Notes: generated from the letters alone by a model not told the origin. A stretch of 64,000 nucleotides of DNA from an uncultured bacterium (GCA_905215015.1 CAJMOS010000004.1:1050-65049); one strand, 5' to 3'. Positions 16,252-37,466 are shown, counted from the first letter of the stretch. A program made the numbers and translations.

Positions 16252-16288
16252 ATACGATTTCATACGACCGATACAAGGAGGAACAAGT

Positions 16289-17551: not shown

Positions 17552-17584
17552 TCTCGGGCAGTGCACCAGTTTTGCCCAGCTTCT

Positions 17585-18702: not shown

Positions 18703-18704
18703 GG

Positions 18705-19295: not shown

Positions 19296-19369
19296 AATTG
19301 CCTCTTTTGTCAAAGATAGGAAGAAACTCTCCCTTGGACAAGTGGTTTGATTCTGCTAGCATTGCCGGT

Positions 19370-20053
19370 ATGGATATCGCTCAGAACATCATTTACCTGT
19401 TCGATTTGTTCGGCACCGTCATCTTCGCGATCACCGGTGCGGTGAAAGGGGTTCGGTGCAAACTGGATTTCCTTGGCGTCATCGTCTTCGCCTGCACGGT
19501 AGGTTGCGGGGGAGGGATGCTTCGCGACGTGCTGATTGGCTGTACCCCGGTCGCAGCCTTCTCCAATGGCGCCTACATCACCGTCAGCGCCCTGACCGGC
19601 TTGGTCGTCTTCTTTTGCGCGCCAAAGATCGTCAACCGCTGGAACATCATCGTCTACTGTGACGCACTTGGCCTTGGGGTCTTCACTGCCATCGGAGTCG
19701 CCAAGGGCGCCCAGTATGGCATCGGGCCTGTAGGGCAGCTCCTCTGCGGAGTCTTTACCGCGGTTGGGGGAGGAGTGATCCGTGATATCATGAGCAAGTC
19801 GGTACCGGTGGTGCTGACCAGCGATTTCTATGCTACGGCGAGCCTGGTCGGAGGTCTCCTCTACCTGTTGCTGGAGAAAACCCCGCTTCCCCTGTTCGCC
19901 AATTTCCTGATTTGTACGGTGACGGTGGTCACCCTGCGCATTCTTGCCGTCGCCAACCACATCCATCTGCCGGTGGCAAACGTCCGTCTGCCTGACGAGG
20001 ACGACTGGCGCCTGTTCCACGGACACTCGAGGAGAGAACAACATGGAAACTGA
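19370..20053 (+). CDS. Trimeric intracellular cation channel-like membrane protein (UPF0126/YadS family)
   Basis: The start is ATG 19370 (MDIAQNIIYLFDLFGTVIFAITGA). It contains two repeats of the glycine-rich UPF0126 motif (GCGGGMLRDVLIG and AVGGGVIRDIM). Confidence 0.75.
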   Translation: MDIAQNIIYLFDLFGTVIFAITGAVKGVRCKLDFLGVIVFACTVGCGGGMLRDVLIGCTPVAAFSNGAYITVSALTGLVVFFCAPKIVNRWNIIVYCDALGLGVFTAIGVAKGAQYGIGPVGQLLCGVFTAVGGGVIRDIMSKSVPVVLTSDFYATASLVGGLLYLLLEKTPLPLFANFLICTVTVVTLRILAVANHIHLPVANVRLPDEDDWRLFHGHSRREQHGN

Positions 20054-21203: not shown

Positions 21204-21787
21204 AGCATTCCTACGTGGGCGAGGATGGCAAGCTGGACTTCAAGGGGTTGCTTTTCAGCACACTCTTCTGGATTCCCCTCACCATCCTTCTGATTTGGAT
21301 TGAGGTGGTCGTGGTACGCCACAGCGGCATCCAGGACAATCCCAGGGTCGACGCCTTTTTGAACACGTACGGCCTGTTCGGCATCGGCATCTTCGTCTGG
21401 CTCGTCGACATGCTGATCGTCCCGTTGACAGTCGACGTCGTCTGGCCTTTTGTGCTCGGGTATCCGGCTTGGCAGGCGGTGCTGATTCTTGCCATCCCTT
21501 CAGCCTGTGGAGGGTATTGCGGCTACTGGATCGGCCGTCTCTTGCAACATATTCCCTTGGTCGGACGGATTGCCGGCAAGTTGACCCATTCCAAATGGGG
21601 ACCGGTGATGGTGCGCTATGGCGCCTTCGGTGTCTTTCTCGGGGCGCTGACCCCGATTCCTTTCACCACCGTCAGCTGGACGGCGGGGATGCTCCATGTC
21701 GACCCGAAGAGCACGCTGGCGGCCTGCTTCATCGGCAGGCTGCTCAGGATGGTGGTCTATCTGGTCTTTGTCTATTTAGTCGCCTAA
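21200..21787 (+). CDS. Small polytopic membrane protein (YqaA/DedA-VTT-like)
   Basis: 195 aa with about 5 hydrophobic helices. It is coupled to the alaX-like gene by an ATGA overlap. The family call rests on topology and size only. Confidence 0.5.
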   Translation: MKHSYVGEDGKLDFKGLLFSTLFWIPLTILLIWIEVVVVRHSGIQDNPRVDAFLNTYGLFGIGIFVWLVDMLIVPLTVDVVWPFVLGYPAWQAVLILAIPSACGGYCGYWIGRLLQHIPLVGRIAGKLTHSKWGPVMVRYGAFGVFLGALTPIPFTTVSWTAGMLHVDPKSTLAACFIGRLLRMVVYLVFVYLVA

Positions 21788-23179
21788 GGCCTGCCTGCAG
21801 AGGGCGATGATGCTTTCCGTGCGCTGGGGCGCCAGGCCCACGTAATCGTCGGCATTGAGGAAGGCGGCGATTTTCGCCGGATCCATGAACCGCAGGATCC
21901 GCGGGTCGCTTTCCAGCAGCCGGGCGAGCGGGTTTGCCTTTCCGTTCTGTACCTCGTCCCAGGCTTTCAGGGAGTTTTCCCTGATGACCTCGTGCATCTC
22001 CTGTCGGTCTGCCCCGGCGCGGCCAAGCTCCATCAGCAACCGCTCGCTGGCGGCGAAGATCCCGTAGGTCTGCATGTTCCGCCTGACCGCCGGCATGTGG
22101 ATGACCATGCCGGAAAGAAGCTTGCTGGCTGTCTTGACCATCTCGTCGCTGGCGAGGAACAGGGCAGGGATGATCATGCGGCGGTTTGCCGAGTCATCCA
22201 GTGTCCGTTCCAGAATCATCGCGGAATTGTTCTGCCACAGGGCGTTGACCTGGCTTTCCACGTAGCGCGCGAGGCTGTCGATCTTTTCGTTGTTGATCGG
22301 GTTGCGCTTGAACGGCATGGCGCTGGAGCCCACCTGCTTCTTGCCGAAGGGCTCGGACCACTCGCCGATGGGGGGCGACATCAGAAGCCGGAAGTCCAGC
22401 GAGAAACGGCTCAGCGTGGTCGCGAGGTTCATGATCGCCTCCCCGACGCGCAGGTCCTGCTTGCGGGGATATACCTGGGTGGCTGCCGGGAATGCAGGGA
22501 TGCCAAGGCGGTCCATGATCCTGTCTTCCAGCTTCTGTGCGTCCATCGCGCATCCCTTCATCAGTTCCACATAGCTTGCCGATGTGCCGACCGCCCCCTT
22601 CATCCCCTTGCCCTTGATGTCGTCCCTGACCCGCCTCAGGTCGTCAAGGTCATGGAGCAGATCCTGGGCGGTCTGGGCGAAGCGGTAGCCGATGGTGGTG
22701 GGCTCGGCGGGCTGGATGTGGGTGAACGCCATGCAGGGTACAGCCTTGTACTCCTCCATCTTGTCGACGAAGAGGGAAAGCAGGGACTCGACCTTGCGGG
22801 TCAAGAGCCCGAGCGCTTCCTTCAGACGGATGGCATCGGCATTGTCCTCGATGTCCATGCTGGTGGCCCCAAGGTGGATGATCGCTCCGGCGGTGGGGCA
22901 CTGCGCGGCGTACGTCTTGATTTCCGCCATCAGGTCGTGATGCAGCTCGGCCTCCCACTTCGCGGCAGTGTCGATGTCGATGTCCTCGGCATGTTCCCTG
23001 AGCTCGGCGACCTGGCTTTTCCTGACCAGTCCTGCCTCGCACTCGGTTTGCGCCAAGGCGATCCAGACCTTGCGGAACAGGATGCGTCTATGCCTCTCGC
23101 TGAAAAGGGCTCGCATCTCCTCGCTGCCGTAACGCCAGGTCAGCGGAGAAATAAAAGTGTCGTGGGTAAACGTGGCCAT
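21776..23179 (-). CDS. purB: Adenylosuccinate lyase
   Basis: 467 aa with the fumarate-lyase signature GSSAMPFKRNP, and N-terminal SPLTWRYGSEEM typical of PurB. Confidence 0.9.
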   Translation of the reverse strand: MATFTHDTFISPLTWRYGSEEMRALFSERHRRILFRKVWIALAQTECEAGLVRKSQVAELREHAEDIDIDTAAKWEAELHHDLMAEIKTYAAQCPTAGAIIHLGATSMDIEDNADAIRLKEALGLLTRKVESLLSLFVDKMEEYKAVPCMAFTHIQPAEPTTIGYRFAQTAQDLLHDLDDLRRVRDDIKGKGMKGAVGTSASYVELMKGCAMDAQKLEDRIMDRLGIPAFPAATQVYPRKQDLRVGEAIMNLATTLSRFSLDFRLLMSPPIGEWSEPFGKKQVGSSAMPFKRNPINNEKIDSLARYVESQVNALWQNNSAMILERTLDDSANRRMIIPALFLASDEMVKTASKLLSGMVIHMPAVRRNMQTYGIFAASERLLMELGRAGADRQEMHEVIRENSLKAWDEVQNGKANPLARLLESDPRILRFMDPAKIAAFLNADDYVGLAPQRTESIIALCRQALGD

Positions 23180-23229
23180 CGAAAGCCTCCTCGCTCATGG
23201 GCATTGTAGCAGGTTGTCGTGCCTATCGG

Positions 23230-24300
23230 CTACTCGTTGTAGCGGATCGACTCCCAGGCGGTGTTGTAGTCGTAGATGGTCTCGCCCAGGTCTTCCTTCA
23301 GCTCGCAGTTCTTCAGCTGGTCGACCGTGTAGAAGGGGGTGGTGGTACGGTACTTGTCCGCCTCCTGGTTGACGCTTGCCGGGAAATGGAAACGGTCGAG
23401 GAATTGGGCGTAGTTGGCCGGGTCGTGGAAGTAGTTGATGAACTTCATGGCAAGGTCGTAGTGCTTCGCCCCCTTGGGAATGCAGAAGTTGTCGATGTAC
23501 ATGGGCCCCCCTTCTTCGGGGATGAAGAAGTCGACCTCGTCCCATTTCTCCTCGGGAATCTCCTCGAAGACCCCTTCGGCATAGCCCTGCACGACGGCGA
23601 ACTCTCCTTGCTGGAAGCTTTTGGCATAGCCCTCTGCGTCGAACTTGGTCAGGTTGGGCTTCCATTGCTCGTTGACGAGTCTCCGCGCATCTTCCAGTTG
23701 TCCGGGATCCTTGGTGTTGACCGAGTACCCCAGGTACTTCAGGGCGTCACCGAGCACCTCGCGCATGTCGTCCATCATGCACATCCTTCCGGCAAGCCGC
23801 TTGTCTGCGAAGATGCTCCAGTCATGGGGATAGCCGCTGACCTGGTTCCTGTTGACGGCGATGCCGGCAGCACCCATGAAATAGGGGACGCTGTAGTGCA
23901 TGGCATGGTCGTACGTGGCCTTCTCGCGGACCAGGGAGGTGATGTACTGCTGGTTCGGAAAGCGCTCCAGGTCGATTGGTTCCAGCATGTCCTGCATCAT
24001 CATGATCGAGACGTAGTCGCCCGAAGGGACGACCAGGTCGTAGCCGCTTCCGGTGCCGGATGCCTTCATCTTGGCGTACATCTCCTCGTTCGATGCGAAG
24101 TAGTCGAGGATGACGGTGCAGCCGTACTCCTTCTCGAAGGCCTCGATGACTCCTTCGGGGGTATAGTAGGACCAGTTGTAGATGTAGAGCTTCTTGTCCT
24201 TCTCGCTTCGGTCCTCGACCGGACCGCTTGCGCGCGAGCAGGAGGCGAGGGAGAGCAGGGCCGCCGCCAACAGGACGGCAAGTCGTGGTTTTGCAAACAT
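23230..24300 (-). CDS. potD: Spermidine/putrescine-type ABC substrate-binding protein (PotD/PotF family), orphan
   Basis: It has a lipoprotein-like signal (LLSLASCS) and PotD-like blocks (LYIYNWSYYTPEGVIEAFEKEYG; DLVVPSGDY). No potABC genes are adjacent. Confidence 0.75.
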   Translation of the reverse strand: MFAKPRLAVLLAAALLSLASCSRASGPVEDRSEKDKKLYIYNWSYYTPEGVIEAFEKEYGCTVILDYFASNEEMYAKMKASGTGSGYDLVVPSGDYVSIMMMQDMLEPIDLERFPNQQYITSLVREKATYDHAMHYSVPYFMGAAGIAVNRNQVSGYPHDWSIFADKRLAGRMCMMDDMREVLGDALKYLGYSVNTKDPGQLEDARRLVNEQWKPNLTKFDAEGYAKSFQQGEFAVVQGYAEGVFEEIPEEKWDEVDFFIPEEGGPMYIDNFCIPKGAKHYDLAMKFINYFHDPANYAQFLDRFHFPASVNQEADKYRTTTPFYTVDQLKNCELKEDLGETIYDYNTAWESIRYNE

Positions 24301-24388
24301 GGCAAAACCTCCTGACGGGAAATAGCCGGCACACTACGTGTGCGTACTCTGCATACCTATCCTATCAGGGGCGTTCAGTCAAGCGGTT

Positions 24389-25108
24389 TCATCCCCGGTT
24401 GTCGATGATCCACATGTTGGCCTTCTTCCAGCGCTGCATTTCCGCTTTGGTCAGCAGCAGCTGGCTCTTCCATTCCTCGGTCGGTTTCTGGGGGTTCAGC
24501 GTGATCAGGCACTTGATGGCGCAGGGGCAGAGGTCGGCAGAGGAGATGCTGCACAGGATTCCCTTGGTCACGTCGCGCACCTCAAGAGGGTTGAAGATGT
24601 ACAGCAGCGCCTCCTCCAGGGCGTTGTACTTGTTGGTGAAGGTGAAGCGGATCAGCATGTCGCTGTACATGACCTTGCCGGTATAGTAGAGCATGCTGTT
24701 GCGCCCGGTCTGGGTGACCGCGCTGATGGCGAGGGTGGCGTCGTAGGTGCCTTGGTTCTCGCCGGTCCGGTGGATGTCGATGATGCCGTCCTTCAGCCGG
24801 TTGTAACGTCCGTCGAAGAAATAGAAATACATCCGGTCAGCTTGGTAGAAGGAGCTGGTGGTCACCCGCTGTGCGGCGAGCAGTGCGGGTTCTGCGGGGG
24901 GCGATTCCGCCAATTGGGAGATGGGGACATGGAGCACCTCGCTTATCTTTGTCAGGGTCTCGATATCGATGACGATTTCACCGCTCTCGTACTTGCTGAC
25001 TGTCGCCCTGCTCTTGTAGATTTGGTCTGCAAGTTCTTGCAGGGTCATGCCTTGTTCTTTACGGAAACTCCGGATTCTTCCCCCAATCACGCTACTCAGA
25101 GTACTCAT
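24389..25108 (-). CDS. XRE-family HTH regulator with an uncharacterised C-terminal domain
   Basis: It has an N-terminal Cro/C1 HTH (IRSFRKEQGMTLQELADQIYKSRATVSKYESGE) followed by about 160 aa with no motif I recognise. It is divergent from brnQ. Confidence 0.75.
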   Translation of the reverse strand: MSTLSSVIGGRIRSFRKEQGMTLQELADQIYKSRATVSKYESGEIVIDIETLTKISEVLHVPISQLAESPPAEPALLAAQRVTTSSFYQADRMYFYFFDGRYNRLKDGIIDIHRTGENQGTYDATLAISAVTQTGRNSMLYYTGKVMYSDMLIRFTFTNKYNALEEALLYIFNPLEVRDVTKGILCSISSADLCPCAIKCLITLNPQKPTEEWKSQLLLTKAEMQRWKKANMWIIDNRG

Positions 25109-25120
25109 ACGCCCTCAAAA

Positions 25121-25232
25121 AGTTTCGTATAACTATCCATTCGAGGAGTTTTTCACCTGCAAGGTTCTTACTTCCTCGGATTTCCTGTGAAAATTCTACC
25201 AATAAGAAATTTTTTCCGTCAATAGTTTCGTA
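25121..25232. promoter_or_regulatory. Two copies of AGTTTCGTA in the XRE/brnQ divergent spacer (candidate operator half-sites)
   Basis: Read directly: AGTTTCGTA at 25121-25129 and 25224-25232. A second imperfect repeat is AAGAAATTT..CGTC / AAGAAATTTATCGGTC at about 25204 and 25235. Confidence 0.3.
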
Positions 25233-25306
25233 AAAAGAAATTTATCGGTCCGGCAGGGAAATGGCCGGGGTGATAAGATTGCCAAGCTTGCAAAAAGGAT
25301 GTGGAA

Positions 25307-26689
25307 ATGAAACAAAGACTGAGCGCTCGTGAATATCTCTCGCTGACCAGCATGTTGTTTGGTCTTTTCTTCGGTGCCGGAAACCTGATTTTCCCCGTGT
25401 CGATGGGGCAGTTGGCCGGAAACCAGATCGGACATGCGCTGGTAGGGTTCCTGATTACGGGTGTCGGTCTTCCGTTGCTTGCCGTCATCTCCCTCGGGTT
25501 GACCCGTAGCGAGGGTGTGCTCGACCTTTCCAGCAAGATTGGCCGAAGGTACGGGCTTTTCTTTTCTTGCGCCCTCTATCTGACCATCGGACCCTTCTTC
25601 GCCATCCCTCGTTGCGTCACCGTCCCCTTCGAGGTGGGTGTCGCCCCGCTGCTTCCCCAGTCGGCCAATCCGAAAATGGCGCTTCTGCTGTTCTCGCTGG
25701 TCTATTTTTTGGCCATGCTCTTCTTCTCGCTCAAGCCGGGGAAAATCCTCACGTGGGTCGGCAAGTTCCTCAACCCGCTTTTCCTGGTGGCGATGGGGAC
25801 GCTGGTCGTCACCGCGCTGGTCCATCCCGCGGCCCCGATCTCTTCCATCGCGCCCGAGGCTGCCTATGCCGCCGGTGCCGGGGCCAAGGGTTTTCTGGAA
25901 GGATATAACACGATGGACGCCCTGGCAGGGCTCGCGTTCGGTATCGTCGTGGTCAACGTGATCCGGAGTCTGGGGGTGAAGGAGCCTGAGCATGTGGCCA
26001 CCTGTACCGTCAAGGCAGGTTTGTTCAGTTGCCTGCTGATGGGGGCCATCTACGTTGCTGTCGCCATCATGGGGGCCCAGAGCAGGGGTGTGCTCCCCGC
26101 CGCCGCCAACGGTGGTGCCGCCCTTGGCATGATTGCCCGCTACTATTACCCCGGCTTTGGTTCCACCCTGCTCGCCCTGACGGTCTGCCTCTGCTGCCTG
26201 AAGACGGCCGTCGGCCTGATCACCAGCTGCGCCGAGGCTTTCGGGGAGATGTTTCCCAAGGCAAGGCTCAGCTATCGTGCCTGGGCCATCCTTTTCTGCG
26301 TGGTCACCTTCCTCATTGCCAATTTCGGGCTTTCGACCATCATCAGCTTCTCGTTGCCGGTACTGATGTTCCTCTATCCGCTTTCCATGACCTTGATCAT
26401 CCTGGCTCTGGGAGGACGCTTTTTCCTGAAGGACAAGGTGACGCTCCGCATGGTGACCGGCTTCACGCTGGCTGCCGCGCTTTTCGATTTGGTCGCGGCG
26501 CTTCCCGCCGGACTCCAGAACCCGCTCTTCGGTGCCATGACCGGCTTCGCCCGGCAGTACCTGCCGCTGACTTCCCTTGGATTGGGCTGGCTGCTTCCCG
26601 CCGCTGTTGGCATGGCCATCGGCCAAATCCACCGGCTGTTCGCTTCCAAACGCGCTCTCGAGGCGGAAGAGATTGCGACTGCTGACTGA
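25307..26689 (+). CDS. brnQ: Branched-chain amino acid transport system II carrier
   Basis: The start is set at ATG 25307, with AAAGGA 8 nt upstream. It is a 12-TM protein with the BrnQ/LIVCS start LFGLFFGAGNLIFP. Confidence 0.85.
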   Translation: MKQRLSAREYLSLTSMLFGLFFGAGNLIFPVSMGQLAGNQIGHALVGFLITGVGLPLLAVISLGLTRSEGVLDLSSKIGRRYGLFFSCALYLTIGPFFAIPRCVTVPFEVGVAPLLPQSANPKMALLLFSLVYFLAMLFFSLKPGKILTWVGKFLNPLFLVAMGTLVVTALVHPAAPISSIAPEAAYAAGAGAKGFLEGYNTMDALAGLAFGIVVVNVIRSLGVKEPEHVATCTVKAGLFSCLLMGAIYVAVAIMGAQSRGVLPAAANGGAALGMIARYYYPGFGSTLLALTVCLCCLKTAVGLITSCAEAFGEMFPKARLSYRAWAILFCVVTFLIANFGLSTIISFSLPVLMFLYPLSMTLIILALGGRFFLKDKVTLRMVTGFTLAAALFDLVAALPAGLQNPLFGAMTGFARQYLPLTSLGLGWLLPAAVGMAIGQIHRLFASKRALEAEEIATAD

Positions 26690-26713
26690 TTCTGCTTGCC
26701 ATCTTTCCCTCTT

Positions 26714-26738
26714 AGCCACCGGAAACGGTGGCTTTTTC
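26714..26738 (+). terminator. Rho-independent terminator of brnQ
   Basis: A perfect 8-bp stem AGCCACCG / CGGTGGCT with a GAAA tetraloop, followed by a T-run. Confidence 0.75.
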
Positions 26739-27214
26739 GTGTGTTCGCATGAGCGGTCAACTGGTATTCCGGATTAGTGGTTTCCATATCCCGACCTGGT
26801 GGTGCGGAAAAACCCGGAATCTTCAGCAAGGTGAAAATGCTCTTTAGAGATCTCCCCTTTAGCGTAGCTCTTGTCGATTCTGACTGGTTCCTGGCAGGTG
26901 CCGTTGACGCGATAGACGAAAAAAACCTCTTGCACTGCATGTCAGAGGCGAAGGTCATGAACAACGGTTTCCACCGCCTTGGCGACATTCGCCGTCGGAT
27001 GTCTAATGGCGTCCCAAGTGGATATCAGGGCAAACATGGTTTCCTCCTCCTCCGACGTATGGAATCTCTTGGAGAAGGAGAGGAATCTGTCATCGAGCCA
27101 AGGCCACTCTTCGCCGGCACCTTCACCGACCTGATTTTTCCTAGTCTTGTGTTTTCCACGATGAATGCGCGCATCCTTATGATTGACTCCTTTGTGCGAT
27201 GTTGTTGAAGCGGG

Positions 27215-30200
27215 GAGGGGTTTCCCAAAGGAAAGATAGAGATTTCTCGCGAAGGGTTGAATAGAAAAGTAAACTGGAACGATTCTAGGGCTAGGGCTGG
27301 AGAATAATTGCGATTTAGATTAGTAGGTGTGCTATTATTTGCATTTAAGAGATTATGTTGGAGATTATGATGGAAAAAGAGGACGAGATGATTGCCAAGG
27401 AAGCTAATTGTTTTTCAGATCAGAATCTTAACGATGACGAATCACAATCTGTTCTACTTGATGTAGATGTCAACCCAATTGAACTCAGTTATGCATCTTT
27501 TCGGGGCAATGTATCTTTATCGATTGAAGTACTGATTGAGAATGATACCGATACTCCTTTGAAAGGTTGCCAATTGGTCGTGAAAACATACACTTCTCTT
27601 CTCTCGGAACTGGATAGACAAATCCCTGTTTCCACCACAATTCGGGATCGTTCTTCTGCTTCAAATACATATAAAACAAGAATTAAATGCAAGATTAATC
27701 CTGAATTGTTTCGGGGATTGAGCGAAGATGAATTACAGACAATAACTATTTCCCTCATTGATCCAGTTAAGAACTTGACACTCCAGTCTAAGGATGTATC
27801 CCTTACTATTAAACCTGCCAAATATAGGAATGAAGATCCCAACACTGTCGCAGTATTTATTCAGCGTAACAATGATGCCATTTCAAAACTTGCCTCGTCC
27901 GTTGGTGAGGTGCTTAAACAATATTGCGGATCATCCGCACTTTGCGGTTATCAAAAGAATGATCCTACGCATGTGAGGCAACAATGCGCGGCGATTTATG
28001 CAGTACTTCAAAAGCAAGAGATTTTATATTCTGAGCCTATAGTTTCGGATGAATTTCAGGGCCAACGGATTCGCTCTGCAAATGAAATACTTTCAGAGAA
28101 AACTGCAACTTGCCTTGATTTGGCTTTACTTTATTGTTCTCTAGCTGAACATATCGGCCTTCATCCAATTGTCTGCTTGGTTCCTCAACATGCATTCCCA
28201 GGGGTGTTGCTTGATGAGAAGAGATCTTTAGACCATGTTGTCTTTGATGACCCCTCTATCATTTCTCAGGATGCAGGAAATCATATTTGCGTTGTTGAAT
28301 CTACATCCTTCACAAAGGACACATCTAAAGATTTCAACCAAGCTTGCGCGTCGGCGTTGCAAAACGCACAGCAAGCGGAACAAATGCAAATCATTGATGT
28401 TCATTTTGCCAGATTGTCCCGAATTTTGCCTCTTCCTGAAAGGAAATTAGATGAGAATGGCGTTCCTGTCTATGTGGAAGATTGTGGTTTTGACATAGAA
28501 GGAAACCAGGCTTCTCATGATGAATCTGTTGCAGAAATTGATCTAACAAAAAAAGAAATAGCAGATAATACTCCAAAGGGAAGATTTGAACAGTGGCAAA
28601 GAAAATTGTTGGATTTCTCTTATCGCAATCCATTGATGGATATGCGTATGGGAGGATCCTTCATCCAGATTCTTTGTCCAAATGTGGGTGAATTCGAAAA
28701 TGCATTGAGTTCGGGCGCATCTTTTTCTCTTAGTGAGGATGACAGAGCCACGGAGCCCAAAGCAGATTTATCAGAAGCTGCGATAGCCGCAAACAGCAAT
28801 GATCAGGCTTTGCGTTCGTTGCTTCAACACAACATAATGAGAACTTCTGAGACAAAAGCGAACCTCAAACGAAAACTTGGTTCCATTTATCGTAAAACCC
28901 AAAAAAACTTGAGCGAGTCAGGAGTTTATACTCTCTATTTGACGCTTGGTCATATTGAATACTATGAGAAAGAACAAGCATATCGAGCGCCTGTACTGCT
29001 TTATCCTGTAGAGCTTATTCGGAAAAACGGTGAATATACTTTGCAGATGAGGGATGACGAGGATCCCCAGCTTAATTTCAGTGTCTTCGAAAAATTTCGT
29101 AATGATTTGCAATATGCAACTTGTTTGAGTTACCAGAATTTACCTACAGATGAGTCTGGATTGAATATTACGGAGATTTTCGCAATTCTTCGAGCTGAGT
29201 TGAAAGAAATACCCCGTTGGAAATTGATCGAGTCATGTTCCTTGGGCATTTATTCTTTCGATCAGTTTGTCATGTACAATGATTTGAAAGGCCATTCTGA
29301 TGCACTGTTGAATAACAAGATAATAAAAAGCCTTGTGAACCGTGAACTCGCATTCCAACAACCAGATCTTCCCAAAGTGGAGGATATTGATTTTATTAAG
29401 CAGATAGTACCTGTGCCATGCGATGAAAGTCAGTTGAAGGCAGTAAAGGCAGCTGCAGAAGGATACAGTTTCATCCTTCAAGGCCCTCCTGGAACCGGTA
29501 AGTCGCAGACCATCACTTCCATAATTGTCAATGCAATGGCTCATGGGAAAAAAGTGCTCTTCGTAGCAGAAAAAATGGCAGCGTTGCAGGTTGTGTATCG
29601 TAATCTTCACAAGGTGGGAGTGAGCAGCCATCTGTTGGAGCTGCATTCAGTGAAAGCTACAAGGGCTCATTTCCTTGAGCAATTGAGTGCTGCACTGGAA
29701 CAGTCAGAAGAAACTGTTTCTGACAATAAGGATGCTGAAGAACGGATTGAAGGCATTAGCAACGAACTGCATGCCTACATTCATGAACTTCATTCCCTTC
29801 GGCGTTGTGGAGAAAGCCTTTATCAATTAATGGATTCCTATATAAGGCATCGAAATGTACCGATTACCCAAATACCTTTTTCTGATATAGAAACGGTTCA
29901 ACAAGAAGATTTGGAAGCTTGTAACAGCCATTTGCAGGAGTATTCTACAAATCTGAAGAGGTTCAGGCCTCTTGCTGTATCACCTTTCCAAGGATTGCAT
30001 TTCACTGCCTATGATGATGAGACAAGAACGGAAGTGGTAGGACTTTCAAGACAACTCAAGACCCTATTGGAAAAAGCTTTGGGGATGGGAAATGTTCTTG
30101 CCGGACATATGCGGGGAAATGGGTTTATTCTCTCTTCTGTTTCCTGCGATGAGCTTGTTGTTCTGAATGGTTTGATTGAGGAGTTAAAAAATGACGATCT

Positions 30201-33200
30201 TCCCAAGCAGTTCCTTTCAATAGAATCTTCTTCATTGCGAGATGGACTTTCTGCTCTGGAGCATTACTTCAAATTGAAGAGTGATACGGATACGTCTCAT
30301 GGCTGGAGTCCTGAGATTTTCCAAGAAAGTATTCCTGGGTTGATTCAGCAATGGGACTCAGTAAAAAAAGGCTTCTTCAAAGGAAAACAACGTGCTGCCC
30401 TTATTTCCAAGGTCAATTCCATGGCCCCATCCGGCATTGTCGTAACAGAACAGAATATTGTCGAAGAATTGAAAAAACTCAATAGTCTGATTTCTGACTT
30501 ACGCAAACTTCAACAAGAAGAGTTGAAAATCCCCGAAAACATTCGTTTCCTTTGTACGAAAAATCTGGCAGTTGCACAAAAAGTAGTGAAAGATGTCAGT
30601 TTGTATCGTCAAGAAACTGCAAATGTCTTGAAGAAATTGGAATATGCTTCAACGGGATGGGAAAACCTTCAGATTGCATTAGATTGGTTTGAGAGTACCG
30701 ATTTTACTAAGGAGTTGCATGCTTTCAGTGATATTCAAAAGGAAATCCATACGTGTTTGGATGCTTTATTCGCTTTACTGAAAGCAGACAGTACCATCTC
30801 TGCATTACCCTATAGCGAATTAGCCAAGCGTTGTGAGTGCTGGATGATGCAGAATAACGACATGAGCGCATGGGCTCATTGCAACGATTTGGGTTCATGG
30901 TTCGATGACAAGCCATATGCAAAGCCTTTTGTGCAAAAGCTCCTTGAGGGTAATGATGTCCAGGACGTTTCCCTCCAGCTTGTTGCTTCTTGGGAAAAAT
31001 CCTACATAGATGAAATTTTCCAGACGAGTTCTCTGTTGTTTCGGTACGAACAGAGCGGTTTTGATGAGCGCATACAGATGCTTATGCAAGCAGAGGAAGA
31101 GTACCGGAATCATGTGAAAAAATCATTGCCAATGTTATTGTCCAAACAGATTCCTGAGGATGGACAAGCGGGTAGACCTTTACAAAGATATGTGGCTACA
31201 AAAGGTAAAAAACAGTCCGTGCGGCAATTTCTAGCAAAATATATTCATGAAGTTCTTGCCTATTTCCCCTGCTTCCTCATGAGCCCGATGTCTGTTGCCC
31301 AATACCTTGATCCGGAAATTCATCCATTCGATCTTGTGGTCTTCGACGAGGCTTCGCAGATACCTACATGCAAGGCGGTAGGTCCGATTGCACGTGGTAG
31401 GAATCTCATTGTTGTCGGAGATACGAAACAAATGCCTCCTACAAGTTTCTTCCAAAAGGGTTCCTCTGTAGACGAGGATAGTGATGATTTGTACGCTGAT
31501 GATTTAGACAGCATTCTTGCCGATTGCATCGACATACTTCCTCAAACGAGTTTGAATTGGCATTACCGAAGTGCTAACGAAAGTCTTATTGCCTTTAGCA
31601 ATAGTCATTATTACCATAACGGTCTCAAGACATATCCTTCTGTTGATTCTCTCCATTCCAAAGTTTTTCTTCGTAAAGTGGCAGGTTACTATCAAGCTGG
31701 AAATAAAGAGCCTAATCCCGCTGAAGCTGAAGCCATAGTGAAAGAGATACGACAACGGCTTGAAGATCCAAAAACACAAAATGAATCTATTGGAGTCATC
31801 ACCTTTGGTGAAAAGCAGCAAAATCTCATACAGGATAAATTGGACGAATTGTTTGCAAGAAGAAGGAAGTTGGCAAAACTCGCCAAATGGGACCAAAGTG
31901 AAATCGACTGTCCTGATCGTCTGATTGTCAAAAACCTTGAGAATATTCAGGGCGATGAGAGGGACGTCATTCTTCTCTCGGTTACCTATGGCAAAACCAA
32001 GGAGGGAAGGTTTTCTACCAATTTTGGGCCGGTGAGTTCGGTTGGTGGGGAAAATAGGCTTAACGTTGCTTTCAGTAGAGCAAAAAAAGAGATGGTGGTT
32101 TTTACTATCATTGACCTCGGTGAATTTTCCAGCAAGCAGATACCCTCAAAGGGTGGAAATGACTTAAAAAGTTTCCTTCAGTTTGCAAGTCAGTCGAACA
32201 ATGTACTCTTACCGTCAAAACGGCAAGACCAACAAGTGCACATGACGAGAGAGATATTACAAATGCTTGAAACTCACGGGTATGAGGGAGACTTGAACAT
32301 AGGGCTCTCTGATTTCCGGGTGGATATTGCATTGAAGAATCCAAAGAGGCCGGACACATTCTTCTGTGGGATTCTGCTCGATGGGGAAAGCATGGAACTT
32401 TCGTCTCTATCCAATGATCGTTTCATCCTTCGTGCGAACCTGCTCAAAGCTCGAGGGTGGAATATTGTTTTGGTACGTACGATTGACTGGTTTAATTCTC
32501 CAGAGCAAGAGAGTGCCTATATCCTGGATCAGGTAGAGAAATATAAAGACAATCTGACCGATGTTCAGCAAGAACTGGATGCTACCTTAGAATCTCCCAT
32601 TGACTCACCTACAGCCGATGGTTCTCGGATTGGCCTTGATTACCAAGCGTATGAGTTTGAAGTAGTGGATAAAATTACTTCGGATGAGTTTCTCGATCTC
32701 CCAGAAACCCAATTGATTGCTCGGTATAAGGATGTGATTGAAGGGGAAGGTCCAATCCTTGAGGATCTACTTGAGCAGCGTGTTCTTAAATCTTTTGGAT
32801 TGAAGCGACGGGGTCAAAACATAAAACCAATTCTTGATAATGCATTGCTGCATGGCAACTTTGTTGCTACTCAACAGGTTGATCTTGAAGGACATTCCCA
32901 ACGCGTATATTGGCCGGAAAAATGGAGAAATGTGGAAGGCATAGAATCAACATACAAACAATTTCGAAGAAATCGAGAAGACGCTTCAGCAGAAGGCAAA
33001 CGTCAGGTATTCGAAATACCGCAGGTTGAAATTCTGAATGCATTTCTGTCAACCATTGAAAGTAATGGATCGACGATGAAAGAAGAACTTGTTCGAAAGA
33101 CGGTCGAATCCTTAGGGTTTAAGTCCAAAGGTGCAAATATTCATGGCATTATGGATATGGTGTTGCGCAACGGAATTAGTGCGAAAAGATTGAGAATAGA

Positions 33201-33410
33201 TGAATTGGGACGGTTTGATATAGTACCAACAATGGGTGAACCACAAGATGCAGGTGAGATGGAGAACCCGTTGAACGCGGAAAATTCAAAAATTCCTCTC
33301 GAAAAAAAATGAGTTGTCCACTGAGATTGTCGAAAAATGTAAACCATTAGAATAGCCTGTTGAACAAAAAGTTCAGGTTGAAAGGAGTTTGCAGGCTTTT
33401 CACGTTTTCT
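27215..33410. other. AT-rich genomic island of about 6.2 kb carrying a single giant gene
   Basis: Base composition shifts abruptly by eye at about 27.2 kb and back at about 33.4 kb. AT-rich codons run throughout the ORF at 27355-33312, while the flanks are G+C-rich. I recognised no integrase, tRNA or clear direct repeats at the borders. Confidence 0.7.
27355..33312 (+). CDS. 1985-aa multidomain helicase-nuclease (Hhe-like architecture): N-terminal extension with a transglutaminase/papain-like Cys-His core, DUF4011-like region, SF1 Upf1-like helicase (AAA_11/AAA_12) with a long insertion, Vsr/DUF559-like endonuclease, duplicated DUF3320-like tail
   Basis: An uninterrupted 5958-nt ORF. The N-terminal extension has C253 (28111-28113) in TATCLDLALLY and H279 (28189-28191) in VPQHAFPGV. 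The DUF4011-like region starts with RFEQWQRKLLDFSYRNPLMDMR at aa 410 (nt 28582). Walker A GPPGTGKS is aa 710-717 (29482-29505). Motif II is VVFDEASQ with D1331-E1332 (31345-31350), followed by VVGDTKQMPP. Helicase C-half motifs are GVITFGEKQ, QGDERDVILLS and RLNVAFSRAK. The nuclease blocks are FRVDIAL (D1657 at 32323-32325), GILLDGES and ARGWNIVLVR. The start is uncertain: ATG 27355, or ATG 27367/27370, which follow GGAG. Confidence 0.85.
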   Translation: MLEIMMEKEDEMIAKEANCFSDQNLNDDESQSVLLDVDVNPIELSYASFRGNVSLSIEVLIENDTDTPLKGCQLVVKTYTSLLSELDRQIPVSTTIRDRSSASNTYKTRIKCKINPELFRGLSEDELQTITISLIDPVKNLTLQSKDVSLTIKPAKYRNEDPNTVAVFIQRNNDAISKLASSVGEVLKQYCGSSALCGYQKNDPTHVRQQCAAIYAVLQKQEILYSEPIVSDEFQGQRIRSANEILSEKTATCLDLALLYCSLAEHIGLHPIVCLVPQHAFPGVLLDEKRSLDHVVFDDPSIISQDAGNHICVVESTSFTKDTSKDFNQACASALQNAQQAEQMQIIDVHFARLSRILPLPERKLDENGVPVYVEDCGFDIEGNQASHDESVAEIDLTKKEIADNTPKGRFEQWQRKLLDFSYRNPLMDMRMGGSFIQILCPNVGEFENALSSGASFSLSEDDRATEPKADLSEAAIAANSNDQALRSLLQHNIMRTSETKANLKRKLGSIYRKTQKNLSESGVYTLYLTLGHIEYYEKEQAYRAPVLLYPVELIRKNGEYTLQMRDDEDPQLNFSVFEKFRNDLQYATCLSYQNLPTDESGLNITEIFAILRAELKEIPRWKLIESCSLGIYSFDQFVMYNDLKGHSDALLNNKIIKSLVNRELAFQQPDLPKVEDIDFIKQIVPVPCDESQLKAVKAAAEGYSFILQGPPGTGKSQTITSIIVNAMAHGKKVLFVAEKMAALQVVYRNLHKVGVSSHLLELHSVKATRAHFLEQLSAALEQSEETVSDNKDAEERIEGISNELHAYIHELHSLRRCGESLYQLMDSYIRHRNVPITQIPFSDIETVQQEDLEACNSHLQEYSTNLKRFRPLAVSPFQGLHFTAYDDETRTEVVGLSRQLKTLLEKALGMGNVLAGHMRGNGFILSSVSCDELVVLNGLIEELKNDDLPKQFLSIESSSLRDGLSALEHYFKLKSDTDTSHGWSPEIFQESIPGLIQQWDSVKKGFFKGKQRAALISKVNSMAPSGIVVTEQNIVEELKKLNSLISDLRKLQQEELKIPENIRFLCTKNLAVAQKVVKDVSLYRQETANVLKKLEYASTGWENLQIALDWFESTDFTKELHAFSDIQKEIHTCLDALFALLKADSTISALPYSELAKRCECWMMQNNDMSAWAHCNDLGSWFDDKPYAKPFVQKLLEGNDVQDVSLQLVASWEKSYIDEIFQTSSLLFRYEQSGFDERIQMLMQAEEEYRNHVKKSLPMLLSKQIPEDGQAGRPLQRYVATKGKKQSVRQFLAKYIHEVLAYFPCFLMSPMSVAQYLDPEIHPFDLVVFDEASQIPTCKAVGPIARGRNLIVVGDTKQMPPTSFFQKGSSVDEDSDDLYADDLDSILADCIDILPQTSLNWHYRSANESLIAFSNSHYYHNGLKTYPSVDSLHSKVFLRKVAGYYQAGNKEPNPAEAEAIVKEIRQRLEDPKTQNESIGVITFGEKQQNLIQDKLDELFARRRKLAKLAKWDQSEIDCPDRLIVKNLENIQGDERDVILLSVTYGKTKEGRFSTNFGPVSSVGGENRLNVAFSRAKKEMVVFTIIDLGEFSSKQIPSKGGNDLKSFLQFASQSNNVLLPSKRQDQQVHMTREILQMLETHGYEGDLNIGLSDFRVDIALKNPKRPDTFFCGILLDGESMELSSLSNDRFILRANLLKARGWNIVLVRTIDWFNSPEQESAYILDQVEKYKDNLTDVQQELDATLESPIDSPTADGSRIGLDYQAYEFEVVDKITSDEFLDLPETQLIARYKDVIEGEGPILEDLLEQRVLKSFGLKRRGQNIKPILDNALLHGNFVATQQVDLEGHSQRVYWPEKWRNVEGIESTYKQFRRNREDASAEGKRQVFEIPQVEILNAFLSTIESNGSTMKEELVRKTVESLGFKSKGANIHGIMDMVLRNGISAKRLRIDELGRFDIVPTMGEPQDAGEMENPLNAENSKIPLEKK

Positions 33411-33869
33411 TCGTGGATGGGGAGCCGGGATCAGGGATGGAAATGTAACGGATTGTGGTGAAGAAGTAATCGTCGTCACGAATAGCCGTAGCCGATCTGC
33501 TTCGCCACCTTATAAGGCCATCCCTTCCATGTCCACAAGGATGTGCTGTTGGTAACGGGCGGAAAGGGCAGTTCCGCTACCAATGACCGGCTTGTCATCG
33601 CCGACATGCTGGCAGTACAGCCAGATGATATTCCGGAACTCAGAGGGTATCCGTGGCGTTTCATAATTCCCGAGAAGACCCCATCAGAAGATGTGGATGA
33701 TAGACTCCGAGAGATAATGGATAATCGGTATGGTGTCTGAGATAGATGAAATGTGCGGGCATTGCTTTCTTATCCACGGGCATACCGTCAGGACTGGATG
33801 ATTCCTTGGGCTGATTGAAGCAGGTGGCGTGCTTTTGCCATTCGCGCATGGCTGTGGTATGCTTGAGGC

Positions 33870-35543
33870 ATGCAGGCTACAGGACAGAAAATCACGACGT
33901 CGTACAGTTCCTTCGAGACGGTTAGGAAGGAAGGATACCTGTACGTGGACAAGACCGCGTATCTGTATGGCCTCGTGACGGGGGCGGACATGTATTTTCT
34001 CTCCCGACCCCGCCGTTTCGGGAAGACGCTGACGGTATCCACCTTGGAGGCAATCTTCCAAGGCAGGAGGGAGCTGTTCAAGGGTCTAGCCATCGACAAG
34101 ACAGACTACGACTGGAAGACCTATCCGGTGGTTCATATTGATTTTGGGAGCTGTGAGGAGAAGACAGCGGAAGGCCTCAATACCTGGCTTTGCGAAAGGC
34201 TTTCCGTCATCGCGCGGAAGTATGGCGTTGTCCTCCAAGGACGGGAGAAAAGTAGCGTCCGTTTCACCCAGCTTCTGGAAAGCCTGTCCGCGCAAGGCAA
34301 GGTTGTCATCCTGGTTGATGAGTACGACAAGGTGCTGTCGGACCATGCGCTTAGCGACAACGTGCTCGAGCTAAGAGACACACTCAAAGGGTTCTATGAT
34401 GTAATCAAGACGGAAAGCAGCCTGCTTCGCTTTGCCTTCATCACGGGAGTGACGAAGTTCTCGAAGGTGGGTGTTTTCTCCGGCATGAACAATCTCTATG
34501 ACGCAACATTCGATCTGGATTATGGGACGATGCTGGGTTACACCCAGGAGGAACTGGAAACATATTTTGCCGGCTACATCGACCAAGGCGTCAAGGACAC
34601 CGGAATGGAGAGGGCAACCTACCTTGCCAGGATCAAGGGGATGTACGACGGCTACAGGTTCGCTCTGGATACGGAGACCGTGTACAACCCTGTTTCCGTT
34701 GGATTGTTTTTCACCCGAGGACACGGCCGGGATTTCGATGACTACTGGATTGAGACGGGAAACATGAAGCTGGTCATGGACATGGCCCAGTCGGTGGACC
34801 TTGATGTCATCCGCGACCTGAAGGACGGCATGGACAGGGATGCGCTTGGTTCATTCGACATCACCCTTCTGAAAGGAATGGAGGGAGACGTCAACAAGGT
34901 GCAGGCCTTCCTGCTGCAGACAGGCTATCTGACCATCGACTCCAAGGACGGAGACCTGTTCATGCTGCGCTTCCCGAATGCAGAGGTGAGGAATGCGTAC
35001 AGCAAGGCGTTCTTGAACCGCCTTTACCAAGGGAGAAGCCAGAACATCATCACGCAGATGGAGAACGAGCTGAAGAAGGGGAATACAGAAGGGTTCATGG
35101 ACCTGTTCGTCGGATACCTCGCGAAGATTCCGTACAGGCAGGCGAAGAAGGAAGCGGACTTCGCCCAACTTGCCGTCGCCATCACCTCGGCGATGAGCGA
35201 GGATGTGTGGACGGTGGCCGAAGACATGACGAGCGAAGGAAGGATCGATCTTTCGCTTACCATGCAGAGGCAGATTTACGTGGTGGAGTTCAAGGTGGAC
35301 ACGGGCGCGGATGCCGCATTGAAGCAGATCAAGGACAAGCACTATGCAGACAAGTTCCGTCTGGAGAGGGGGAAGGCCATACACCTCTTGGGCATCGCCT
35401 TCAGCTCGACCGGACACACGGTGCAGGACTGGAAGGAAGAGGTGCTGGATCAGTACCATGCGGATACAAGCGTCTGCCAAAACCTGCAAACAAACGCATC
35501 ACAAGCAGGTTCTGTTGACAGGTCATCGTCTCCCTTGGATTGA
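33870..35543 (+). CDS. AAA-ATPase_like domain + PD-(D/E)XK nuclease (PDDEXK_9-type) protein
   Basis: The N-terminus SFETVRKEGYLYVDKT and the degenerate P-loop RPRRFGKT (G51-K52-T53 at 34020-34028) are hallmarks of the predicted AAA-ATPase family. The C-terminal nuclease core is GRIDLSL (D460, 35247-35249) ... VVEFK (E473/K475, 35286-35294). Its base composition resembles the backbone, not the island. Confidence 0.8.
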   Translation: MQATGQKITTSYSSFETVRKEGYLYVDKTAYLYGLVTGADMYFLSRPRRFGKTLTVSTLEAIFQGRRELFKGLAIDKTDYDWKTYPVVHIDFGSCEEKTAEGLNTWLCERLSVIARKYGVVLQGREKSSVRFTQLLESLSAQGKVVILVDEYDKVLSDHALSDNVLELRDTLKGFYDVIKTESSLLRFAFITGVTKFSKVGVFSGMNNLYDATFDLDYGTMLGYTQEELETYFAGYIDQGVKDTGMERATYLARIKGMYDGYRFALDTETVYNPVSVGLFFTRGHGRDFDDYWIETGNMKLVMDMAQSVDLDVIRDLKDGMDRDALGSFDITLLKGMEGDVNKVQAFLLQTGYLTIDSKDGDLFMLRFPNAEVRNAYSKAFLNRLYQGRSQNIITQMENELKKGNTEGFMDLFVGYLAKIPYRQAKKEADFAQLAVAITSAMSEDVWTVAEDMTSEGRIDLSLTMQRQIYVVEFKVDTGADAALKQIKDKHYADKFRLERGKAIHLLGIAFSSTGHTVQDWKEEVLDQYHADTSVCQNLQTNASQAGSVDRSSSPLD

Positions 35544-35652
35544 ACCTATTCCAGGGAAGCACCATTGGCCCATCCCGGTCAGTAGGTACAAAAGAGGGGG
35601 GTGTCCGGAATCAAGTTCCTTCTTCCCCCCTTCCTGTCATGCGGGTGTCTCT

Positions 35653-36921
35653 TTAGCGGATAATGATCTGGTTGCGCTCCGGTCCGACCGAGACGTACTT
35701 GATCGGGGCTCCGGAAAGCTTCTCCAGGGCAAGGACGTACTCCTGCGCCTTCTTGGGAAGTTCCTCCCACTTGCGGCAGGAGGTGATGTCGCAGTTCCAG
35801 CCCTCGAACTCCTCGTAGATCGGCTTGGCCTTCGCCTGCCCCTGGGTGTCCGGCAGCTCGGTGACGCGCTTGCCGTCGATCTCGTAGGCGACGCAGACCT
35901 TGATCGTCTTGAAGGTGTCCAGGACGTCCAGCTTGGTCAGGGCGATGGCGGTGAAGCCGTTGACCCACGAGCCAAACTCGACGGCCACGGCGTCGAACCA
36001 GCCGCAGCGGCGGGGACGGCCTGTGGTCACCCCGAACTCGCCGCCGATTCTGCGCAGCTTCTCGCCGTCCTCGTCGAACAGCTCGGTCGGGTAGGGCCCG
36101 CCGCCGACGCAGGTGGAGTACGCCTTGGCGACTCCGATGACCTCGCTGATCCGGTTGGGGGCGATGCCGGCACCGGTGCAGGCGCCACCGGCGGTCGGGT
36201 TGCTGCTGGTGGTGTAGGGGTAGATGCCCCAGTCAAGGTCTCGGGCGATGCCGAGCTGGCCTTCGAGCAGGACGTTCTGTCCTTCTCTGATCGCCTTGCG
36301 GACGATGGGCAGGGTGTCCTTGATGCGGCAGCCGAACTCGGCTTTCCAGGCGTCGCACTTTTCGAGCAGCTCCTCCAGGGTGTAGGTGGGCAGGCCGTAG
36401 TACTCGAGCTCGCGGTTCTTCAGCGGAAGGACCATCGCCAGACGGGTCTTCAGCCACTCGGGGTCGAGCAGGTCTCCGGCGCGCAGGCCGCTGCGGGCGC
36501 TCTTGTCGCTGTAGCAGGGACCGATGCCGCACTTGGTGGTGCCGATCTTCTGGCTGGAGCTGCGCTTGTTCTCCTCGGCGCCGTCCAGAGCCTTGTGGTA
36601 GGGCATGATCAGGTGGGCCCTGGTGTCGATGAAGAGGTTACGGGTGTCGACGCCCTTGGCCTCCAGGTTGGACAGCTCGTCGTGCATGCGGTCGAAGTTG
36701 ACCACGGCTCCCGCATCGACGATGTTGATCGTGTCGGGGTTGAAGATGCCGCTGGGAATGATGTGCAGGCCGAACTTGCCCTTCTCGTTGACGACGGTGT
36801 GTCCGGCGTTGTCGCCACCCTGGTAGCGGATGGCGACCTGGCAGTTTTGGGCGATATAGTCGACGATGCGGCCCTTGCCCTCATCGCCCGACTGGGCTCC
36901 AATCACGGAAATGACGCTCAT
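35653..36921 (-). CDS. purA: Adenylosuccinate synthetase
   Basis: It has the P-loop GAQSGDEGKGRIVD, GTTKCGIGPCY and GVTTGRPRRCGW. It is 422 aa long. Confidence 0.92.
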   Translation of the reverse strand: MSVISVIGAQSGDEGKGRIVDYIAQNCQVAIRYQGGDNAGHTVVNEKGKFGLHIIPSGIFNPDTINIVDAGAVVNFDRMHDELSNLEAKGVDTRNLFIDTRAHLIMPYHKALDGAEENKRSSSQKIGTTKCGIGPCYSDKSARSGLRAGDLLDPEWLKTRLAMVLPLKNRELEYYGLPTYTLEELLEKCDAWKAEFGCRIKDTLPIVRKAIREGQNVLLEGQLGIARDLDWGIYPYTTSSNPTAGGACTGAGIAPNRISEVIGVAKAYSTCVGGGPYPTELFDEDGEKLRRIGGEFGVTTGRPRRCGWFDAVAVEFGSWVNGFTAIALTKLDVLDTFKTIKVCVAYEIDGKRVTELPDTQGQAKAKPIYEEFEGWNCDITSCRKWEELPKKAQEYVLALEKLSGAPIKYVSVGPERNQIIIR

Positions 36922-37466
36922 GTTCTAGCCTCCTGAGCACGTTGCTCGCGTTCTTTGCGGTTATGCTCGTCGATGTCGGCGGCATCCCACGGATAGCCGA
37001 TCCAGATGTCGGGGATTTCCTCTCCGGCGAAATACCGCTTGACCTCGACCGGCATCTCCACGTCTTTTTTCTTGAGTTTGTTGTGCAGCACCAGCACGGC
37101 GACCTCTTCGGGCTTGTACTTGAGAAGTTCTCCGACGCAATAAGCCAAGGTGGCGCGGGTGTCGTCCACCTCGTCGATCAGCAGGATCTTCTTGCCGGTC
37201 AGCTGGGACTGGACCTCGTCGATCCACTGGATCTTGTGCGGGTGGTCGGCATGGGAGTGGTCGGTCCCGTAGTAGGAGATGCCGACGGCGTAGATCGGGC
37301 GATGGATGAAGGTTTTCAGGATGCGGGCAGGGATGAAGCCGCCGCTGCCGATGGCGACGATGACATCAGGGTCGTAGCCGCTCTTCTCCACACGCTCGGC
37401 CAATCCCTTGACCAGTTTGTGCACCGTCTCATAGCTGACGTAATACTTTTGTTCGTTCATTGCCAT
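36918..37466 (-). CDS. Phosphoribosyltransferase (xanthine/guanine PRT-like, Gpt-type layout)
   Basis: It has the PRPP-binding motif KILLIDEVDDTRATL and N-terminal VAIGSGGFIPARIL. There is a 4-nt overlap with purA. Confidence 0.7.
   Translation of the reverse strand: MAMNEQKYYVSYETVHKLVKGLAERVEKSGYDPDVIVAIGSGGFIPARILKTFIHRPIYAVGISYYGTDHSHADHPHKIQWIDEVQSQLTGKKILLIDEVDDTRATLAYCVGELLKYKPEEVAVLVLHNKLKKKDVEMPVEVKRYFAGEEIPDIWIGYPWDAADIDEHNRKEREQRAQEART

Follow-up and report, generated by a model that had tools for sequence, protein, structure and literature searches.

The stretch of DNA analysed here (the window) comprises 64,000 nucleotides from an uncultured bacterium (GCA_905215015.1, CAJMOS010000004.1:1050-65049) and contains, between the genes brnQ and purA, a low-GC segment occupied by a single long gene. 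Inspection of the GC content in 500-nt windows showed a fall from 0.51-0.65 to 0.37-0.44 across ~27.0-33.4 kb and a return to 0.52-0.56 thereafter, which confirmed that the compositional break is real and sharp. A first-pass annotation, made from the sequence alone, had placed this break at ~27.2-33.4 kb, and the identity profile against a related contig refined the limits to ~27.1-33.3 kb. The GC content of the gene was 0.416, compared with 0.576 for window positions 1-26715, and its GC content at third codon positions (GC3) was 0.381; the values for brnQ, the AAA gene downstream and purA were 0.762, 0.728 and 0.905, respectively. As had been annotated, the sole long open reading frame (ORF) of the interval runs from 27355 to 33312 on the + strand and encodes 1985 amino acids (aa); it stays open without interruption for 5958 nt. 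The true start, as read from the sequence, is probably the ATG at 27370, with a GGAG at 27360-27363. No site was found in a sigma-70 promoter scan 5' of the gene, and an exact-sequence look-up of the protein returned no record. The features of the segment and of the predicted protein are as follows.

26714..26733, + strand: terminator hairpin of brnQ (terminator scan), marking the left limit of the variable brnQ-purA gap
27100..33320, no strand: low-GC segment (GC 0.37-0.44), apparently recently acquired, consisting of the gene and ~250 bp upstream; marked by a jump in identity to a related metagenome contig (L001) and not present in two other relatives (L002 and L003)
27355..33312, + strand: ProA-like / PDC-S37-like helicase-nuclease ORF (ORF list; profile matches; ratio of nonsynonymous to synonymous divergence, dN/dS, of 0.32 against the L001 copy)
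27445..27819, + strand: predicted N-terminal beta-sandwich, immunoglobulin (Ig)-like, aa ~31-155 (AlphaFold2 model, Foldseek)
27832..28479, + strand: predicted transglutaminase (TGase)-like, papain-fold domain, aa ~160-375 (triad conservation, Pfam, Foldseek, PMC3710099)
28603..29091, + strand: DUF4011, Pfam aa 417-579, structural unit ~aa 410-690 (PF13195, E 5.4e-31)
29422..29967, + strand: superfamily 1 (SF1) Upf1-like helicase, first half of RecA1 (AAA_11, PF13086, E 8.5e-19)
29968..31254, + strand: poorly conserved insertion of ~430 aa in the helicase core, aa ~872-1300
31255..32109, + strand: second half of the helicase and RecA2 (AAA_12, PF13087, E 1.9e-17), with the Walker B DEAS at 31345-31356
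32248..32529, + strand: Vsr-like / MTES_1575 nuclease of the restriction-endonuclease fold, aa 1632-1725 (PF18741, 52.6 bits against a cut-off of 38.2)
32683..33189, + strand: two winged-helix (DUF3320) repeats, aa ~1777-1824 and ~1880-1945 (PF11784; conservation profile)

The five Pfam families named in the first-pass annotation were all recovered above their gathering cut-offs and in the order given there: DUF4011 (aa 417-579, 108 bits), AAA_11 (aa 690-871, 68.8 bits), AAA_12 (aa 1397-1583, 63.9 bits), MTES_1575 (aa 1632-1725, 52.6 bits) and DUF3320 (aa 1777-1824, 30.8 bits). The top PADLOC profile was PDC-S37 (E 2.4e-284), a significant and near-full-length match to a single gene, in which aa 409-1948 were aligned with positions 8-1540 of 1550; this profile begins at DUF4011 and leaves the N-terminal 400 aa of the protein unmodelled. 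The N-terminal part was covered by the NCBIfam equivalog model NF058533, 'anti-phage protein ProA', which was matched with 1423.5 bits in a single collinear stretch across the whole profile (aa 45-1923 against 1-1902 of 1903). The order of beta-sandwich, TGase-like domain, DUF4011, split SF1 helicase, Vsr nuclease and two domains of the winged helix-turn-helix (wHTH) type, together with the catalytic residues, was the same as in ProA. PADLOC Hhe was the second best profile, with a partial match at E 4.9e-125, and the NCBIfam Hhe equivalog model NF042953 gave 566.4 bits against a cut-off of 2000 (E 1.4e-169), with its best stretch at aa 1277-1743 against positions 1234-1696 of 1797.

The search of the protein database returned 660 homologues at E<=1e-10; of the 120 listed, almost all were 1900-2150 aa long. 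Their identity to the window protein fell into tiers, with a strain copy at 95% (P0001), P0002 at 55%, P0003-P0014 at 39-43% and the bulk at ~30-33%; the subclade P0001-P0014 came entirely, as it appears, from gut metagenomes. When the homologues were scored with the ProA model, P0060, P0069, P0018 and P0047, which are ~31-33% identical to the window protein, reached 2014-2272 bits, whereas P0012, from the group of closer relatives, reached 1406 bits and thus stayed, like the window protein, under the cut-off of 1500. This pattern points to a divergent ProA subclade lying just under the equivalog line. On these scores the window protein is assigned as ProA-like, within a divergent clade of the ProA family, and is not filed as an equivalog. 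The profile scores also suggest that the helicase core groups with ProA and not with Hhe. By the same comparisons, Hhe is placed as a sister family to ProA / PDC-S37, and the latter as the HEPN-less, transglutaminase-bearing branch of a 'giant protein' superfamily (DUF4011, SF1 helicase, Vsr nuclease, wHTH) that includes Hhe. The protein thus has no new domain and no new arrangement as far as its profile matches indicate, and is a divergent member of a known single-gene family.

The gene had been annotated as an anti-phage defence module of the Hhe type. The anti-phage part of this assignment is supported by the matches to anti-phage profile libraries, but the Hhe identity is not (566 against 2000 bits). 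HheA, too, is one giant protein, in which DUF4011 is joined to an SF1 helicase of the Upf1 type, a nuclease of the Vsr type and DUF3320, and its defence depends on the nuclease; it differs in being a member of the sister family that is covered only in part. The annotation had also credited the PADLOC authors with the description of Hhe; Hhe was reportedly introduced by Gao et al. in 2020. DefenseFinder lists it as 'Gao_Hhe'.

Conservation was examined in an alignment of 121 proteins, namely the query and 120 homologues. The motif positions of the first-pass annotation (GPPGTGKS, the DE pair, K716 and D1657) were all correct. The Walker A GPPGTGKS (aa 710-717, nt 29482-29505) was invariant in 121/121 sequences, and the Walker B DEAS, motif III VVGDxKQMPP, QGDERD and RLNVAxSRA were invariant across the alignment as well; none of the SF1 helicase motifs III, V and VI, nor either of the two Walker motifs, varies. 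The DE of VFDEASQ corresponds to aa 1331-1332 (nt 31345-31350). By sequence, the nearest solved structures were the Upf1-like cores of IGHMBP2 (E 4e-9) and Sen1 (E 2e-6). The insertion at aa ~872-1300 matched no Pfam family, was mostly variable in the family consensus and had a dN/dS of 0.42. In the nuclease domain, D1657 was present in 120 and D1676 in 116 of the 121 proteins, and the further residues D1689-R1690, W1702 and D1711-W1712 were identified. The nuclease is followed by the DUF3320 wHTH region, in which the first repeat scored 30.8-34.9 bits with PF11784 (cut-off 25) and the second was recognized in the conservation profile by the same motif, L..r.l...G(f/i).r.G; two wHTH domains had been described for this architecture (PMC3710099). 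In DUF4011, WxRKLLD, G532 and AP..LP were invariant or nearly so. The AlphaFold2 model of this region (aa 405-690, nt 28567-29424) was confident, with a predicted local distance difference test score (pLDDT) of 86, and had no neighbour in a Foldseek comparison with the PDB (best E 0.22). Judged from the sequence, the SF1 motor and the Vsr-type nuclease are intact, and the two wHTH repeats and a TGase-like triad are present.

The region ahead of DUF4011 had been described in the annotation as a long extension that departs from the family. It was found that 350-399 residues precede the DUF4011 motif WxRKLLD in 100/121 aligned proteins, compared with 413 in the query. Because most of the 121 carry this module, the ProA profile covers it from residue 45 and the fusion was already described in 2013, the N-terminal region is the norm of the family and not an extension peculiar to the window protein. 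The AlphaFold2 model of aa 1-419 (pLDDT 85, predicted template modelling score 0.81) consisted of a beta-sandwich (strands within residues 33-152, pLDDT ~90) and an alpha/beta domain at ~160-375. Ig-like or accessory beta domains matched the sandwich in Foldseek, and the alpha/beta domain matched human transglutaminase 2 (TG2) and protein 4.2 at E ~1e-3, with a root mean square deviation of ~3 A (3.1 A for TG2) over ~123 columns. The putative catalytic triad was highly conserved, with Cys253 and His279 each in 120/121 proteins and Asp298/Asp299 in 116-119/121. When family members were scanned one by one, Transglut_core was hit in 14/24 (best E 4e-4) and DUF553 in 10/24, all under the Pfam cut-offs, and a profile of the TGase-like region had no match among PDB sequences even at E 10. 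The assignment as a TGase-like domain is thus based on three agreeing lines, each modest alone, and a transglutaminase fusion to this architecture has been described by Anantharaman et al. 2013 (PMC3710099). P0002, the closest homologue outside the strain copy, with 128 member sequences, has Pro in place of the catalytic Cys and Ile in place of the His, and keeps all helicase and nuclease motifs. It is a natural 'dead-triad' variant, the two substitutions leaving its triad inactive, which suggests that catalysis by the TGase-like module is not always needed.

The N-terminus was longer in 12/121 proteins. Six of these 12, P0015, P0017 (with RNDAVH), P0021, P0024, P0036 and P0037, carry an additional HEPN-like region of ~170 aa with RNxxxH ahead of the beta-sandwich, and correspond to the HEPN-TGase-helicase-Vsr-wHTH architecture of 2013. 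The window protein shares with those MTES_1575-type giant proteins (Anantharaman 2013) the order of TGase-like domain, SF-I helicase, MTES_1575 restriction endonuclease and DUF3320 wHTH, and likewise has no modification subunit. It differs in having no HEPN domain (Rx4-6H), since only ~30 residues stand ahead of its beta-sandwich.

Three related genomes or contigs were informative for the history of the locus. The variable brnQ-purA gap extends from 26716 to 35650, and the low-GC segment of ~27.1-33.3 kb is a younger unit inside it. In a congeneric genome (L003), in which BrnQ is 74% identical and the flanks show ~80% nucleotide identity, the brnQ-purA distance is 185 bp, and this locus is read as an empty site. 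The conspecific metagenome-assembled genome (MAG) Spirochaetales SUG1938 (L002) is 92% identical over window positions 15294-26715; the similarity stops right after the brnQ stop, at 26715, and the large gene is missing. Past this point, ~280 bp precede a homologue of the AAA-ATPase_like/PDDEXK_9 gene that lies downstream of the large gene in the window; the homologue is frameshifted and 60% identical at the aa level. The metagenome contig L001 has the same gene at the same site, with flanks 90.6% identical and the low-GC segment 96.8% identical. Along the alignment the identity to L001 rose from 0.91-0.93 to 0.97-0.99 at ~27.1 kb, and dropped again at ~33.2-33.3 kb. The synonymous divergence (dS) from L001 was 0.068 for the large gene and 0.27-0.36 for brnQ, purB, the binding protein gene and the HTH gene, and the dN/dS values were 0.32 and 0.02-0.07, respectively. 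The large gene is under purifying selection and, by dS, its two copies separated ~five-fold more recently than their hosts. Its low dS agrees with a recent gain that then spread by way of the conserved flanks. A search of metagenome_contigs for more conspecific brnQ-purA loci gave a best BrnQ match of only 60% identity. With the foreign composition (GC3 0.381) and the absence from the orthologous site in close relatives (L002 and L003, among three loci compared), horizontal acquisition, which the first-pass annotation had proposed, is well supported.

The gene also appears to stand alone. The neighbourhoods of three homologues were compared, no shared neighbour gene was found, and no methyltransferase or other partner is conserved beside them, consistent with the annotation as a self-contained single gene. 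One of these homologues follows azlCD and has a transposase fragment downstream, and another lies among cell-envelope genes. The third, P0003 (43% identical), lies immediately upstream of an MmeI-type restriction-modification gene, with a Fic-domain gene close by (L087, 13936-16707), a setting typical of a defence island. Full-length relatives with ~30% identity were found on plasmids of Paraburkholderia, Bacteroides finegoldii, Gluconobacter, Rhizobium and Paracoccus, and one relative on a gut 'bacteriophage' contig. At E<=1e-20, 464 plasmid records were matched, many of them probably partial, of which 330 were conjugative or mobilizable. The N-terminal module alone matched 1328 cluster representatives (50% identity) at E<=1e-10; among the 150 matches listed, most were ~1900-2300 aa long and carried it N-terminally.

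The genes on either side of the gap are housekeeping genes, and the gap itself holds one further gene.

21776-23179, - strand: purB
23230-24300, - strand: PotD-like binding protein
24389-25108, - strand: XRE-type HTH protein, 239 aa
25301-26689, + strand: brnQ
33870..35543, + strand: gene with AAA-ATPase_like (PF09820) and PDDEXK_9 (PF08011) domains, 557 aa (Pfam), GC3 0.73
35653-36921, - strand: purA
36918-37466, - strand: phosphoribosyltransferase

The AAA-ATPase_like/PDDEXK_9 gene was considered as a partner of the large gene and rejected: it has host-like GC3, occurs in L002 without the large gene, has no PADLOC match and is not found beside the homologues. Its counterpart in L002 (11650-12990) shows 60% aa and 69.5% nucleotide identity and is frameshifted, despite flanks at 92%, and the gene is interpreted as a separate hypervariable occupant of the brnQ-purA gap. 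The low-GC segment is separated from the brnQ terminator by ~400 bp (26716-27100) with a GC content of ~0.5, which are present in L001 at flank-level identity (0.91-0.93), are absent from L002 and L003, and contain only short ORFs without a family match; they probably remain from an earlier insertion. At 26794-26843 there is an indel, with 50 bp present in the window and missing in L001. An ORF of 143 aa at 26777-27208 had no Pfam, NCBIfam or PADLOC match and was treated as non-coding or remnant DNA. The XRE-type HTH gene lies just upstream of brnQ, where the GC content falls locally to 0.48-0.49 (24.75-25.5 kb); only the HTH part of its product resembles the PADLOC RmrA/CapH regulators, and the gene is conserved in L001. 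A second distinct block of low GC content (0.47-0.51, compared with 0.55-0.61 elsewhere) was observed at ~45000-64000. It encodes parts of an ABC/Opp-type peptide transporter, a histidine kinase, a ROK-family protein, a sulfatase and a PGI-like protein, and may be another acquired, metabolic region.

We consider it likely that the large gene was acquired horizontally, serves in immunity as a stand-alone member of the ProA / PDC-S37 family, works by a motor-nuclease mechanism and arrived in the brnQ-purA gap after the strains diverged. The protein would act without DNA modification, and the architecture and its modification-independent action were proposed in PMC3710099. The wHTH and DUF4011 modules would load the enzyme on nucleic acid, the ATP-driven motor would translocate along invader DNA or replication intermediates, and the Vsr-like nuclease would then nick or cleave this DNA. 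In the sister family, Hhe protects against lambda, T3, T7 and PhiV-1, and the point mutation E1731A in the nuclease domain abolishes defence. According to the PhageMaP preprint, seven class II DNA-metabolism genes of T7 (g1.4-g2, g2.8) emerged as potential triggers in a knockout screen of Hhe, and expression of Bas63 g40 was toxic solely in Hhe-carrying cells; the T7 result was interpreted by its authors as Hhe sensing an activity and not one protein. By analogy with Hhe, the trigger of the window protein would probably be a phage DNA-metabolism activity and not a single phage protein. The beta-sandwich/TGase-like module could serve as a sensor or regulator, or as a second, proteolytic effector arm. 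Its catalytic triad is kept in nearly all members and lost in P0002, the nearest sister clade. At the population level, the gene would have entered the gap of a Spirochaetales lineage after strain divergence and then spread among strains, probably by recombination via the conserved flanks. A more far-reaching proposal is that P0001-P0014 form a functionally distinct lineage in which the beta-sandwich/TGase-like module is a dedicated sensor of a phage protein and not an enzyme, given that P0002 has lost both Cys and His and is nevertheless widespread, or, in members with an intact triad, a further effector with proteolytic or cross-linking activity acting beside the nuclease, with DUF4011 as a new nucleic-acid-loading fold; we put it forward tentatively and think it rather doubtful.

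Several observations weigh against the interpretation as an acquired ProA-family immunity gene. At the junctions there was no integrase, flanking repeat or adjacent tRNA, in agreement with the first-pass annotation: the only tRNA in the window is a tRNA-Cys at 17914-17985, and the search for direct or inverted flanking repeats gave short matches at chance level. The window protein is 76.5 bits short of the 1500-bit ProA equivalog cut-off. In a full-text literature search no publication behind the name 'ProA' was found, so that the experimental status of ProA rests on the NCBIfam naming; no paper mentioning PDC-S37 was found in such a search either, and in PADLOC the PDC entries are candidates and not validated systems, PDC-S37 among them. 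A search of the PDB returned no family member with a solved structure, and the substrate, polarity and trigger are consequently all inferred. It was reported in the PhageMaP preprint that NAD+-salvage genes counter Hhe, which hints at a depletion of NAD+ or adenine that the motor-nuclease model does not explain. In Pseudomonas aeruginosa, a DUF4011 gene belongs to the core and not to the accessory genome, and relatives need not all be defence genes.

The last point, that the large P. aeruginosa gene is core, could also be taken to suggest a housekeeping helicase-nuclease of odd composition, working in nucleic-acid quality control or repair in the manner of Upf1, Sen1 or IGHMBP2, and the nearest solved structures are indeed the helicase cores of IGHMBP2 and Sen1. 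Such a role is quite improbable here, given that the gene is absent at the same site in the conspecific MAG and the congeneric genome, is five-fold younger than its flanks by dS, has a GC3 of 0.38 against 0.73-0.90 in its neighbours, and shows a dN/dS of 0.32 against 0.02-0.07 in the flanking housekeeping genes. Nor is the gene plausibly the decaying or inactive leftover of an earlier transfer, which we hold to be extremely improbable. Remnant-like DNA without a family match does occur in the gap (26716-27100 and 33313-33869) and the neighbouring AAA gene is frameshifted in L002, but the ORF of the large gene is uninterrupted for 5958 nt, its catalytic motifs are all intact and its dN/dS is well under 1.

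The identity of the family and of its target leave two further alternatives. The protein shares DUF4011, the SF1 helicase, the Vsr-type nuclease and DUF3320 with Hhe, and the Hhe profiles do match it with E-values of 4.9e-125 (PADLOC) and 1.4e-169 (NCBIfam), as would be expected of a true Hhe orthologue with an added N-terminal extension. However, the 566 bits obtained fall far from the cut-off of 2000, the best stretch covers just aa 1277-1743, PDC-S37 and ProA fit far better and end to end, and the N-terminal module is the family norm; orthology to Hhe is thus very improbable. It is less easily dismissed, though still unlikely, that the main target is other mobile elements, such as plasmids or conjugative DNA, with phage secondary, or that the gene is a selfish or addictive element. 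Relatives are frequent on conjugative or mobilizable plasmids (330/464 records), an architecture of this kind recognises DNA without modification marks, and no phage of this host is known. On the other side, both matching profile libraries derive from anti-phage systems or candidates, Hhe, the sister family, restricts phages, and no antitoxin-like partner accompanies the gene. Among known defence systems, Hna, Nhi, Hachiman HamAB and Mokosh MkoA/MkoC likewise combine a helicase motor or sensor with a nuclease effector, and the helicase half of the window protein weakly matches the MkoA/MkoC profiles. These systems differ in helicase subfamily, nuclease fold and accessory domains, and none has DUF4011 or TGase-like modules; the likeness is one of functional analogy only.

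As a defence-island find the gene is otherwise expected and fairly ordinary, and the label Hhe is corrected to ProA-like / PDC-S37. The family is large, and its mechanism, the DUF4011 fold, the ~430-aa insertion in the helicase and the conserved TGase-like triad are of particular interest. The large gene and the triad-less P0002 provide a natural pair for probing the role of the TGase-like domain. For the organism, because of the empty site in a relative and the dS 'clock', the locus appears to be a clean natural case of the recent gain of a single-gene helicase-nuclease defence by a poorly studied gut spirochaete.

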